A program made the translations under genes and the position numbers. DNA of 64,000 nt from an uncultured Methanosarcinaceae archaeon (GTDB taxonomy: Archaea; Halobacteriota; Methanosarcinia; Methanosarcinales; Methanosarcinaceae): assembly GCA_963727895.1 (NCBI GenBank), contig CAVSHT010000009.1, positions 192,001 to 256,000 on the forward strand, read 5' to 3'. This document shows, in pieces, positions 24,406 to 27,984 of this stretch. Position 1 is the stretch's first letter. Each line of letters opens with the position of its first letter. The notes under the pieces were generated by a model that saw only the letters and a program-made list of their open reading frames with translations, made no database searches and had not been told where the DNA came from.

Positions 24406-24855
24406 TTAACTCTGCTTTTCACTCCGGACAACCATAACCGGAACTTTTGAGTTTCTCACTACATTCTCTGCAACACTTCCCATCAAAAATCTGTCGAGAC
24501 CTGTTTTGCCGAGAGTACCCACAACTATTAGGTCAATATCATTATTCTCAGCGAAATTTATAATCTCATTGCTTGGGTGACCTTCCAACAGGACTCCTCT
24601 TACCTCAACCCCTGAAGCTTCTCCGCATTCCTTAACTTCGGATATTGCTTTCTCTCCCTCCTCTTTCAGAGTGTCATACATTGTTTCCCAGCCAGCATCC
24701 ATAGGTAGCGAAGAAAAAGAAGTCATATCTACCACGTAAAGACCATGTACCGTAGCCCCACTAAGTTTTGCAATCTCAATACCATATGAGATAGCTTTAA
24801 GGCTATTTTTGGATCCGTCTGTTGCAATCAATATATTCCTGTAAAATTCACTCAT
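24406..24855 (-). CDS. Universal stress protein
   Basis: ILIATDGS and DLIVVGTLG..GSVAENVVR. Confidence 0.95.
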   Translation of the reverse strand: MSEFYRNILIATDGSKNSLKAISYGIEIAKLSGATVHGLYVVDMTSFSSLPMDAGWETMYDTLKEEGEKAISEVKECGEASGVEVRGVLLEGHPSNEIINFAENNDIDLIVVGTLGKTGLDRFLMGSVAENVVRNSKVPVMVVRSEKQS

Positions 24856-24876: not shown

Positions 24877-25986
24877 TTAAGAATGAAATACTGATAATAT
24901 GTCATCGGGTCTTGCCCGCCTTGTGATTCCATTTATAGGGTTCTTTATCCCTAAAAGATTATTGGAATTTCCATTAAGGATCATAAGATTAGCTTTATTC
25001 CCCTTTTGTATCGAATTTATAGAATCATGCCCCATTACAAAAGACCCATTAAGTGTGCAAATTTTAAATACTTGTCTATCGTCAAGTGAAAAAACTTTGG
25101 ACATAAATTCCATTTCAGCAAACATATTTACAGAATTTAACATTACATTATCTGTTCCTGCAGCTACTTGTATTCCAGCTTCGAGCATATCGGCTATAGG
25201 TGCCATTCCGACTCCTGTAATGAAGTTAGACCTGGGGCAGACAACAACTGGAATTTTCGCATCAGCCACAGATTCCAGATCTCTTTTTGTAGCTTTTGTC
25301 AGATGAATAAGAAGATCAGGTTCGAGTGATAATGCTTTTTCTATGTCGCTTGTATCTTTTTCTCCTGCATGAATCGCAAAGAATTTATTATGTTGGCGTG
25401 TAAAGGTAGCTATATTCTCCAATAGTTCGAGATCAAGATCATTTGTCCCACTCATTCCGAGACCATTAGAACTTAACAAAATTCTTTGGACTTCCGCCAG
25501 TACTACCTGAAGAGGTAATTCAGGTTCTGCAGGTCTACTCAATACCATAGAACGAAGTTTAATTTCTTCGAGAGCTTTATTCAAAGCCGCTACACCTACA
25601 ACACCCCCCTCTCTGAAATCCGCAAAAGCACATGTACCTGTTTCTACCATATCCATTAGGGACTTTTTCATACACTCGATAATGGTTTTGTATGGCGTTT
25701 CTCTTAAAATTTTATGTTTTAACCCATCAGGAGGCTTTACCAAGGCATCCAGATCTTTTTGAATTTTGAATCCAGAAACTTTTCCCAGTGTGGGATCTTT
25801 GAATACTGAATCTCCAAGGTGAGTATGAGCATTGACAAAACAGGGAGCTATTATGTTGGTAGAGTGTGTATGTTCCTCTCCAATCTCTGTAATAATCCCT
25901 TTATTTATACAGATATACCCTTCAATAGGTTCTAGGTCAGAACCTGCAATAATTGTTCCAGAAATTATCTGTTCAGTGCCATACAT
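24877..25986 (-). CDS. Amidohydrolase/deaminase family protein
   Basis: NAHTH, IHAGE, CPRSN and GTDN. Confidence 0.9.
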   Translation of the reverse strand: MYGTEQIISGTIIAGSDLEPIEGYICINKGIITEIGEEHTHSTNIIAPCFVNAHTHLGDSVFKDPTLGKVSGFKIQKDLDALVKPPDGLKHKILRETPYKTIIECMKKSLMDMVETGTCAFADFREGGVVGVAALNKALEEIKLRSMVLSRPAEPELPLQVVLAEVQRILLSSNGLGMSGTNDLDLELLENIATFTRQHNKFFAIHAGEKDTSDIEKALSLEPDLLIHLTKATKRDLESVADAKIPVVVCPRSNFITGVGMAPIADMLEAGIQVAAGTDNVMLNSVNMFAEMEFMSKVFSLDDRQVFKICTLNGSFVMGHDSINSIQKGNKANLMILNGNSNNLLGIKNPINGITRRARPDDILSVFHS

Positions 25987-26270
25987 ATCTACGCACCTCA
26001 GCTATTCATTAAATATAATACTTAACTTGCGAAAGAGCAAATATCTAAATAATATAAAATATTTTTTGATAGTTTTAAAAATGTAATAATTTTTATAATA
26101 ATGCAATATAAATAGGATGCAAATTAAGTTTTATTGCTTTTATGAAAGGTTGCTCGTTTTTATGAGAAACTGACCTTTAATCTAAATATCTCCTATAAAT
26201 ATATATGCAATAGAGTTAAACCATACATCACCGATATTTATATATATTAATGGAGATATAATGGGACTTT

Positions 26271-26443
26271 AGCGCATTGTATAGGTCCTTGCACGAGATA
26301 ATGGAAAATCCTGACTATGAGTGTATAGACAACCCCAATGCGGTACATTGATAGTGTAACATTGCCCGGCACGAGGGTAACTGAAAGTGACTGCGGAAAA
26401 CCAGAGGATGAACTTTCGGAGTTAGTGCGCCAGGGCTACAGCA
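26271..26443 (+). ncRNA. Candidate two-hairpin box H/ACA guide RNA
   Basis: Stem cgcattg/caatgcg then ACA (26345-47). Stems gccc,gcac/gtgc,gggc then ACA (26438-40). GA..TGA K-turn-like motifs in both hairpins, a TATA upstream and a T-tract downstream. Confidence 0.75.
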
Positions 26444-26592
26444 CTATTTCTTTTGATATTAAAAAATCCAGGTGGGGACTTTAGTAATTAAAGTTAAAAC
26501 TTTAGTAATCAAATTTCAGTTTTCCTTCTTTAATTGGTTAATAAATAAATTCGTTATTGAGATATAGAATACCTCGAGAAAGGTAAAAGAAT

Positions 26593-26910
26593 ATGGCTTT
26601 CGAAGAGGCAATAACAGATCTAGGTTCTAACATAATCATTGATATTGAGGTTACTCCCGGTTCTAAGTCAATTTCGGTTCCTAGCAGTTATAATGAGTGG
26701 CGTAAACGAATTGAAGTAAAACTAACTAAAAATGCCCAGAAAGGAAAGGCAAATGAACAGCTTGTGGAATGTCTTGCTGATCTCTTCGGGATTAGTAGCT
26801 CGAATATTCAGATAAATAGTGGGGCAACGAGCAGTAAAAAGTCTTTATTGATAAGAGGAGTTTCATATCAACAGGCAGTTTCAATTCTAGAAGCCCATTT
26901 AAAGAAATAA
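26593..26910 (+). CDS. DUF167/UPF0235 (YggU-like) protein
   Basis: IEVTPGS, KGKANEQL and SGATSSKK. Confidence 0.9.
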   Translation: MAFEEAITDLGSNIIIDIEVTPGSKSISVPSSYNEWRKRIEVKLTKNAQKGKANEQLVECLADLFGISSSNIQINSGATSSKKSLLIRGVSYQQAVSILEAHLKK

Positions 26911-27044: not shown

Positions 27045-27476
27045 GTGACTGATTTAGAAATTTATAGAAAGAGACTTGAAAGAATTGAAGAACTGCTTTC
27101 CGAAATCTCCGAATACGCTGAAAAGGGAGCAATTATCATCGTTGAAGGAAAAAAAGATGTTCTCTCACTGAAAAAGCTTGGAATTGAAGGCAATTTTGAA
27201 CTTGCAACTCGAGACTCTCTTTTTAATTTTTCAGAGAGAATTACCCAGCTTGGTAGCGAAGTAGTTATATTGACTGATTGGGATAGAAGAGGTGACCTTC
27301 TGGCTACAAAGCTTTCAGGATACTTTGAAAGTTTTGGTCTGAACCCTGAACTTGATATTCGAAATAAACTCAGGTTCATAGTTCAAAAAGACATTAAAGA
27401 TGTTGAAAGTCTGTATACCTATGTTTCGAAGTTGAGATTGAAAACAGGCTCCTGCTCAAATCAGGATTTCCAATAA
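27045..27476 (+). CDS. Toprim domain protein (UPF0292)
   Basis: IIVEGKKD and LTDWDRRG. Confidence 0.9.
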
Positions 27477-27567: not shown

Positions 27568-27984
27568 TTATTCTTTATGCATGGGACTTGAAGATTCTCT
27601 GCTCTCCTGAATGATTTCCATATTTTGTGGACTTTTTTGATGGTTAAACGTCCGATCAAATTCTGGATACTTTGGAAACTTAACAGACAGTTCCTCAAAC
27701 ATTTTATGCCTGGGACTAATAATTATTATATGAGCAGGAGGATGAATTTTCTTCAGCCTGCTAATTGCCGCCCCTGCATGATTATTCAACTCAACTAGTG
27801 CTGCAGAGTTACATTTTGATTTGAGGGATACTCCCATCACATTAACAAGAAGCTCATCAGCATAGTTTGGCTCTATACATTTTGGAGTAGCCGAAAATTG
27901 AATATGTCCATATCGTTCTAGATCATGTAAGGCTATTTTTACTTTGTCCGAATCGTCTGCCCGGACTAATGCGAATGATTTCAT
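27568..27984 (-). CDS. DUF356 family protein
   Basis: LVRADD..ALHDLERYG and KIHPPAHIIIIS. Confidence 0.8.
   Translation of the reverse strand: MKSFALVRADDSDKVKIALHDLERYGHIQFSATPKCIEPNYADELLVNVMGVSLKSKCNSAALVELNNHAGAAISRLKKIHPPAHIIIISPRHKMFEELSVKFPKYPEFDRTFNHQKSPQNMEIIQESRESSSPMHKE

Follow-up and report, generated by a model that had tools for sequence, protein, structure and literature searches.

A probable orthologue of the haloarchaeal H/ACA guide RNA sR-h45 in Methanosarcina, with pockets complementary to 23S rRNA around three uridines

The window analyzed here is a 64,000-nucleotide stretch of DNA from an uncultured Methanosarcinaceae archaeon (assembly GCA_963727895.1, contig CAVSHT010000009.1, positions 192,001–256,000), and the subject of this study is a small RNA (sRNA) gene located at positions 26272–26444 of its + strand. 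The gene sits in a 606-nt gap between an amidohydrolase gene (24877–25986, − strand), which is neighbored by a gene for a universal stress protein (24406–24855, − strand), and a DUF167/YggU gene (26593–26910, + strand, the same strand as the sRNA). RNA contigs, sequence conservation, and a covariance-model match at 26267–26451 delineate a putative mature sRNA of approximately 173 nt, which has the architecture of a double-hairpin box H/ACA guide. An earlier note, made from the sequence alone, had described two hairpins at this position, each with a GA/TGA motif resembling a kink-turn (K-turn) and an ACA, together with an upstream TATA and a downstream T-tract, and all of these elements are found in the sequence. 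An A/T-rich TATA-like box, TTTATATATATT (26237–26248, + strand; core TTTATATA, 26237–26244), is located about 25–35 nt 5′ of the RNA start, and a similar A/T-rich box lies at an equal distance in all 23 same-genus loci compared. This box would serve as the promoter. The T-rich tract TTTCTTTT (26447–26454, + strand) follows the 3′ ACA and is likely the transcription stop; the same-genus loci likewise carry T-rich tails 3′ of the RNA.

All elements of the sRNA described below lie on the + strand. The lower stem of hairpin 1, assigned from the alignment and its covariation, is formed by a 5′ strand (P1a, CGCATTG, 26273–26279) that pairs with CAATGCG (26336–26342) of the 3′ strand (P1b, CAATGCGGT, 26336–26344). 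Above it opens an internal loop (TATAGGTCCT / TAGACAACCC) that constitutes the pocket. The 5′ pocket strand, TATAGGTCC(T) (26280–26289), contains GGTC (26284–26287), which pairs with GACC of the 23S ribosomal RNA (rRNA) (E. coli 2588–2591), while the 3′ pocket strand, TAGACAACCC (26326–26335), contains AACCC (26331–26335), which pairs with GGGUU (E. coli 2581–2585). The upper part of the hairpin (26290–26325) begins with a stem between TGCAC (26290–26294) and GTGTA (26321–26325), followed by a tandem G·A motif in which GA (26295–26296) faces (T)GA (GA, 26319–26320), and the GAG and TGA of this motif are invariant. Beyond the G·A pairs and a single closing G-C pair lies an apical stem-loop, in which GG (26303–26304) pairs with CC (26310–26311); this apical stem differs by genus, being GG/CC, GAC/GTC, or GGC/GCC. 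Hairpin 1 is not a strict K-turn, and in both hairpins the agreement with the G·A rule is one of sequence. In place of an H box, hairpin 1 is followed by an ACA box (26345–26347). The distance of 14 nt to this ACA, as given by the earlier note, is exact when counted from the first A of AACCC (26331), and it places U2586 at n+15. The second G·A pair is found at position 9–10 from the base of the upper stem. Both values fit the rules for such hairpins given in PMC7075261.

Hairpin 2 is built on the same plan. The 5′ strand of its lower stem, GCCCGGCAC (26364–26372), forms 9 bp with positions 26425–26428 and 26432–26436, and the 3′ strand (26425–26436) carries a 3-nt bulge, GCC (26429–26431), which is absent in four relatives (loci L032, L033, L036, and L037). 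The 5′ pocket strand, GAGGGTAA (26373–26380), contains GAGGGT (26373–26378), which pairs with 23S ACCCUC (E. coli 1919–1924), and the 3′ pocket strand, AGTTA (26420–26424), contains GTTA (26421–26424), which pairs with 23S UAAC (E. coli 1911–1914). An upper stem of 8 bp follows, formed by CTGAAAGT (26381–26388) and ACTTTCGG (26412–26419) as read in the sequence, and leads into a canonical-looking K-turn, in which GA (26389–26390) faces GA (26410–26411) with the bulge GAT (26407–26409). The GAC and TGA of this motif are invariant, and the second G·A pair stands 10 positions above the base of the upper stem, again in line with PMC7075261. The apex, within 26381–26419, consists of a CT..GG/CC..AG stem and an AAAA loop. 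The 3′ ACA box lies at 26438–26440.

The two hairpins are joined by a 16-nt linker (26348–26363). Its segment ATAGTG (26352–26357) is complementary to CACTAT (26442–26447), and the minimum free energy fold pairs both, which would enclose hairpin 2 in a third helix. The two segments do not vary among members of the genus, and other genera lack them. The adapter junctions at 26441–26444, described below, would cut off most of the 3′ strand of this linker-tail helix, so that it may exist only in a precursor.

The + strand folds with −54.6 kcal/mol (z −2.37), and 3 of 200 shuffled sequences fold as well; the fold of the − strand (z −1.11) is not better than that of shuffles. A DNA search of 41 genomes, including the window's own, matched the locus in 36. 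All 24 genomes of the same genus are among these, one of them 60% complete and with only a 22-nt match, as are 11 of the 16 genomes from other families of the order; there was no DNA match in families f5 (0/1) and f6 (0/3). The nearest named loci belong to Methanosarcina spp. In less close relatives, the conserved part corresponds to positions 34–210 of the query (window 26273–26449), exactly the proposed RNA. The hairpin 1 signature was found, among the matches listed, in Methanosarcina, Methanoperedens, ANME-2, Methanosaeta, Methanocellales, and other Methanosarcinales.

The proposed structure was assessed on two alignments. The close-relative alignment comprises 34 of the 35 loci with matches, L023 being omitted since a run of N cuts its RNA. 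In that locus (1539–1702, 1808–1894), which comes from a same-genus genome, the run of N follows hairpin 2 and precedes a second, partial copy of the same hairpin, an arrangement that is most likely a scaffolding artefact. Across the 34 sequences, 95.4% of cells hold standard pairs, and 17 of the 41 pairs are changed on both sides, compared with 9.7 on average in 500 shuffles, of which none attains 17, and with 1–8 double-changed pairs in slid controls, in which the partners were shifted by 1–3 columns. In the alignment of distant relatives (n = 28), which was fitted to the model and leans toward the proposed structure, 39 of the 41 pairs are double-changed, against a shuffle mean of 25.7 (0 of 500 reach 39) and 14–25 in the slid controls. 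Both-side changes affect four of the nine pairs in the lower helix of hairpin 1 among close relatives and all nine among distant ones. Close relatives show them in three of the five outer pairs of the hairpin 2 lower stem and in six of the eight pairs of its upper stem. The hairpin 1 stem pairs adjoining the G·A motif covary as well, from AU to GC in seven sequences and from CG to GC in eight. RNAalifold, which was not given the proposed structure, arrives at the same lower stem in each hairpin, at the top of the upper stem in hairpin 1, and at hairpin 2 in full. The design of lower stem, pocket, and upper stem is supported by this covariation, and the stem conservation in other Methanosarcina to which the earlier note had looked is present and extends well beyond the genus.

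While the stems vary, the functional parts do not. The pocket strands TAGGTCCTTGC, CAACC, AGGGT, and GTTAGT and the G·A motifs are identical in all 34 sequences, which covers the 5′ pocket stretch of hairpin 1 at 26282–26292 (T16–C26), its 3′ pocket residues C64, A65, A66, C67, and C68, and A108–T112 (AGGGT) and G155–T160 of hairpin 2. GTTA is retained in 24 of the 25 distant relatives possessing hairpin 2. The 3′ ACA box (A172, C173, and A174) is likewise invariant in 34/34. The box of hairpin 1 is ACA or ATA, with A79 and A81 invariant and C80 at least 90% conserved (n = 34), so that its variants reduce to ANA. Since the pockets, G·A motifs, and boxes stay constant while the stems change, the pattern of conservation is that of a guide RNA.

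Transcript evidence was drawn from assembled contigs of four metatranscriptome runs belonging to four studies. Among 22 runs listed, 18 RNA runs contain part of the stretch, each with no more than 0.44 of a 411-nt query, a share that corresponds roughly to the RNA's length. The RNA contigs cover only 26272–26460, and none extends over 26150–26261 or 26472–26560. Adapter sequence abuts the insert at 26272/26273 in two studies and at 26441/26444 in three, the latter being 1–4 nt past the 3′ ACA. The adapter orientation is identical at all listed junctions, and presumably indicates an RNA of the + strand if the libraries were stranded in the usual way. The contigs give a good hint that the RNA is a discrete species of approximately 173 nt, which would start with the first base of the lower stem of hairpin 1 and, as is usual for H/ACA RNAs, stop 1–4 nt past the ACA. 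As judged from contigs, the RNA libraries thus appear to hold, as a discrete unit over 26272–26460, the transcript that the earlier note had named as a check.

The earlier note had proposed that pocket 1 (ggtc + aaccc) pairs with GGGUU-UA-GACC and pocket 2 with UAAC-UAUG-ACCCUC of helix 69. Both patterns exist in the host. Its genome contains two 23S rRNA copies that differ at one position; GGGTT-TA-GACC occurs once in its own 23S, with the U at own position 2606, and TAAC-TATG-ACCCTC also occurs once, with U at own 1945 and 1947. Alignment to the E. coli 23S rRNA of an annotated record equates own 2606 with E. coli U2586 and own 1945/1947 with U1915/U1917, the very positions that had been named. 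For the target scan of hairpins 1 and 2, which covered 23S rRNA only, every 23S U was considered, at least 3+3 Watson-Crick pairs were demanded, and unpaired guide bases were permitted at the top of the pocket. The best 23S site of each pocket is the predicted one. Pocket 1 forms 9 bp (4+5 around U2606-A), the next best site giving 6, and pocket 2 forms 10 bp (6+4 around UAUG 1945–1948), the next best giving 8. Both sites fall in known pseudouridine regions of euryarchaea, as the earlier note had stated, and in Haloferax volcanii an H/ACA RNA introduces the modifications there (PMC7075261, PMC2584109).

The flanks of the targets were compared over 28 rows, five of them without retrieved rRNA. 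In all 23 other phylum genomes for which rRNA was retrieved, the paired flanks are identical. E. coli position 1918 is the only variable target base; 17 of the 23 genomes have G there and 6 have A, as do three further relatives. The exact helix-69 pattern had no match in five relatives because position 1918 differs there, and a DNA search then matched four of the five. A co-variation between guide and target at 1918 was considered, since four A1918 relatives have a guide U instead of the Methanosarcina A; it was dropped, as four other A1918 genomes keep the guide A and several G1918 genomes have U.

The genome itself encodes the proteins that such a guide would require, namely Cbf5, Nop10, Gar1, and two proteins of the L7Ae family, all above curated cut-offs. 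The Gar1 match (G000:C2:1073–1261, − strand, locus L089) scores 33.2 bits and has one TGA inside, and its open frame is 91 aa. By analogy with characterized systems, L7Ae and Cbf5 would bind the RNA in Methanosarcina, and the predicted pseudouridines would be formed there. Rfam holds no model that matches the sRNA. At gathering thresholds, the whole window gives 0 matches, and at E values up to 10 the region 26100–26600 gives only chance-level matches (mir-1277, Evf-2, ceN67, and MIR7723) and no archaeal H/ACA family. HgcG (RF00064) has no match in 26100–26600 (E up to 10) or in the whole genome (E up to 1). Searches of the open-access literature returned no paper that describes an H/ACA RNA or maps rRNA pseudouridines in Methanosarcina.

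The closest characterized relative is sR-h45 of H. volcanii, deletion of which removes three pseudouridines that a plasmid copy restores (PMC7075261). Its stem-loop 1 directs Ψ2605, and its stem-loop 2 directs Ψ1940 and Ψ1942 from an unpaired UNUN (PMC7075261). The corresponding positions 1956, 1958, and 2621 of Haloarcula marismortui equal E. coli 1915, 1917, and 2586 (PMC2584109). The RNA described here shares with sR-h45 two hairpins in the same order and the same three targets. In both, the 5′ hairpin is matched to the peptidyl-transferase center, with AACCC as its 3′ guide, GUC within its 5′ guide, and a spacing of n+15, and the 3′ hairpin is matched to U1915/U1917 through GUUA + GAGGGU, which leave UNUN unpaired. 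Further shared traits are the G·A motif in each upper stem, the bulged lower stem of hairpin 2, and homology at the covariance-model level. The two RNAs also differ. The linker is 16 nt here, compared with about 56 nt and a possible pseudoknot in the haloarchaeal RNA; the box after hairpin 1 is ACA rather than the AUA of the AUAGCUA H box; and the 5′ guide of hairpin 1 pairs over 4 bp rather than 3. Stem-loop 1 of sR-h45 normally pairs over 3 bp with its 5′ strand and over 5 bp with its 3′ strand, at the top of which two guide bases stay unpaired, and has 15 nt to its box (PMC7075261). The present RNA is moreover AT-rich, has the genus-specific linker-tail complementarity, and has a function that is predicted from sequence. 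The long spacer marks the haloarchaeal subgroup only, short spacers being the case in other archaeal H/ACA RNAs (PMC7075261).

Further relatives are known outside the haloarchaea. Pyrococcus Pf7, Pab40, and Archaeoglobus Afu4 represent a three-motif H/ACA sRNA, the HgcG family of Rfam (RF00064; PMC2584109, PMC4652768), and haloarchaeal HP1 and HP2 have been regarded as homologues of stems II and III of Pf7 (Grosjean et al. 2008, PMC2584109). Under that proposed homology, the sRNA described here would be related to stems II and III of Pf7/Pab40. The helix-69 target is shared with these RNAs, and their three-motif layout recurs in four relatives of the present locus described below, whereas Methanosarcina has only two hairpins and RF00064 does not match. 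Human U19 and yeast snR191 are eukaryotic helix-69 guides (PMC2584109). In such guides and in dual-guide pockets, as proposed for hairpin 2, a single pocket acts on two neighboring uridines of helix 69 by way of alternative or extended unpaired configurations (PMC8763049). The eukaryotic guides have an H box and use Nhp2 in place of L7Ae and the K-turn, and the likeness drawn here concerns the use of one pocket for two uridines.

A covariance model (R1) was built only from Methanosarcinales sequences (the 34-locus alignment). Of the 151 phylum genomes searched with it, 89 gave a full-length match, with 36 of 62 genera represented and 65 of the 117 good-quality genomes among them; under Infernal's stricter filters, the other 62 had no match. 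The R1 E-values are rough owing to a short calibration. The weakest matches come from GC-rich genomes of 3.5–4.2 Mb, where a long insert separates the two hairpins, and the hairpin 2 pattern taken from them recurs in more than 120 haloarchaeal records among the matches listed. R1 matches Natrinema altunense (L218) over its full length with 31.5 bits (E 8e-8) and Haloferax prahovense (L249) with 22.1 bits (E 1.8e-5), while in L266 and L226 it matches hairpin 2 with E about 1e-5. The haloarchaeal loci carry AACCC + GUC in hairpin 1 and GAGGGU + GUUA in hairpin 2. The Haloferax prahovense locus has the published layout of sR-h45, with two hairpins and nearly 60 nt of spacer between them, and its box reads ACAGCTA where that of H. 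volcanii reads AUAGCUA.

In one sister family (L027, L029, L030, and L031), a third H/ACA-like hairpin of about 70 nt stands directly 5′ of hairpin 1. Its lower stem is CCCTTC/GAAGGG, its upper stem CTGATG/CATCGG covaries with CTGGTG/CACCGG, and a TGA...GAT loop is followed by ACA + 3 nt. With the Methanosarcina 23S rRNA as a stand-in, the best match of its pocket is UUGC-UA-CCUCGA, with own U2516 equivalent to E. coli 2496 (a C there). The four loci that are free of the hairpin 2 bulge have a conserved 6-bp hairpin, CCAGAC...GTCTGG, 5–6 nt 5′ of hairpin 1, with no ACA evident. In family f16 (L074, L075, and five other loci), R1 matches only about 100–120 nt; L074 and L075, when aligned, show a hairpin-1-like unit with pockets CACGGTCCC / AACCA, and their hairpin 2 does not align. 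The hairpins of this family may be unlinked, or hairpin 2 may have been lost.

These results make it highly probable that 26272–26444 (+) is a box H/ACA guide sRNA and an orthologue of sR-h45, directing Cbf5 to U2586, U1915, and U1917. In the mechanism we propose, the RNA would be transcribed from its own TATA promoter, end at the T-tract, and be trimmed until only a few nucleotides follow the 3′ ACA. L7Ae would bind each hairpin at the G·A (K-turn) motif, and Cbf5-Nop10-Gar1 would bind each at the lower stem and ACA box. On nascent 23S rRNA, hairpin 1 would form 5 bp between AACCC and GGGUU and 4 bp between GGUC and GACC, leaving U-A unpaired at the active site, so that own U2606 (E. coli U2586, in the peptidyl-transferase loop) would become pseudouridine. 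Hairpin 2 would pair with helix 69 through GUUA/UAAC (4 bp) and GAGGGU/ACCCUC (6 bp), with UAUG left unpaired, and both own U1945 and U1947 would be converted, as for stem-loop 2 of sR-h45.

Several observations weigh against this interpretation. Contigs of metatranscriptomes cannot prove the ends, strand, or level of an RNA; no Rfam family detects the sRNA; and no mapped pseudouridine was found for any Methanosarcina rRNA. Hairpin 1 is irregular, having two mismatched positions in its upper stem and a single G-C pair above the G·A motif. Instead of binding the target, GUC of its guide can pair with GAC on the opposite pocket strand, and RNAalifold favors pairing the two invariant pocket strands with each other. 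There is also no clean co-variation between guide and target: the guide does not follow position 1918, which fits 1918 being unpaired and offers no positive proof. Complementarity is not rare in itself under the permissive rules of the scan: when pocket 1 is shuffled, 87 of 500 versions attain 9 bp at some 23S site; pocket 2 is less affected, with 6 of 500 reaching 10 bp. Weight comes from the position of the matches, which fall on exactly the three haloarchaeal 23S pseudouridines. The spacing of hairpin 2 is a further concern under the n+15 rule, which places the target U about 15±1 nt 5′ of the ACA box: with the bulge counted, U1915/U1917 lie at n+18/n+20, one nucleotide longer than the spacings of 17 and 19 at which stem-loop 2 of sR-h45 functions, and in that system a lengthening by 3 nt reduces activity (PMC7075261). 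Without the bulge, the count is n+15/n+17. The weakness of pocket 1 in the shuffles and this spacing, beside a target scan that covered 23S rRNA only, would also suit a genuine H/ACA RNA with other or additional substrates, such as a single helix-69 uridine, a tRNA or another RNA, or one acting as a chaperone of 23S folding without catalysis. We regard such an RNA as unlikely, given that the single best 23S site of each pocket is the site proven for sR-h45, that the guide bases are invariant in 34/34 sequences and nearly so across the phylum, and that the four relatives devoid of the bulge have n+15 and n+17.

The presence of two G·A motifs, the GATGA and CTGA strings in hairpin 2, and the lack of a match to any Rfam H/ACA family would also fit a K-turn RNA that does not guide pseudouridylation, such as an L7Ae-binding regulator or a degenerate C/D-type RNA. 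A box C/D sRNA proper was rejected, as the terminal layout of a RUGAUGA C box and a CUGA D box, the latter preceded by a 10–12-nt guide, is missing. GATGA is the bulged K-turn strand inside the hairpin and not a terminal box opposite a D box; no C/D family matches in 26100–26600, the sole snoRNA row being a chance-level match (E 6.4) on the opposite strand upstream of the RNA; the ACA boxes are correctly spaced after both lower stems and invariant; and the bipartite pockets match known pseudouridine sites. These points make a non-guide K-turn RNA very improbable. Least credible, with hardly any probability left to it, is a 5′ leader or cis-element of the DUF167/YggU gene, which lies 149 nt downstream on the same strand, or a coding function of the 48-codon open reading frame at 26338–26484, whose frame is open in most same-genus sequences. 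The RNA contigs end at 26444–26460 and none crosses 26472–26560, and a T-tract follows the ACA. Stops or frameshifts break the frame in three same-genus loci (L006, L008, and L019) as well as in the majority of loci beyond the genus, and the stem substitutions are compensatory. Neither of the two small open reading frames at the locus has a Pfam match, and a coding reading of both was rejected on this ground and for want of conservation. Farther along the window lie genes for a small Toprim-domain protein (27045–27476, + strand) and a DUF356 protein (27568–27984, − strand), with no apparent link to the sRNA.

The sR-h45-type guide RNA identified here belongs to a kind whose targets and mechanism were already known, and what is new is this member and its reach across the phylum; the orthology with sR-h45, which the earlier note did not name, lowers the novelty. 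Knowledge of how such guides act is unchanged, and the find is sound but ordinary. A broader scenario, which we put forward only tentatively and consider rather doubtful, is that the RNA represents an uncatalogued phylum-wide family, the ancestral guide of Halobacteriota for helix 69 and the peptidyl-transferase center and perhaps the sole H/ACA guide of many of them. Two- and three-hairpin forms would interconvert within it, with the third hairpin of some sister families aimed at about E. coli 2496, and the bulged Methanosarcina form would stretch the n+15 rule to n+18/n+20. The linker-tail helix could then clamp the precursor or join two ribonucleoproteins, as is thought for the haloarchaeal pseudoknot spacer.

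The RNA fills an annotation gap in Methanosarcina, a widely used methanogen model genus with a full set of H/ACA proteins, and the alignment and the model retrieve this RNA from most of the phylum. As a natural experiment beside sR-h45, its short linker, the bulge in its lower stem, and its ACA box where sR-h45 has AUA are relevant to the rules on spacing and boxes derived in Haloferax. For the ribosome of Methanosarcina, it predicts three pseudouridines at central sites, in the intersubunit bridge helix 69 and in the peptidyl-transferase loop.

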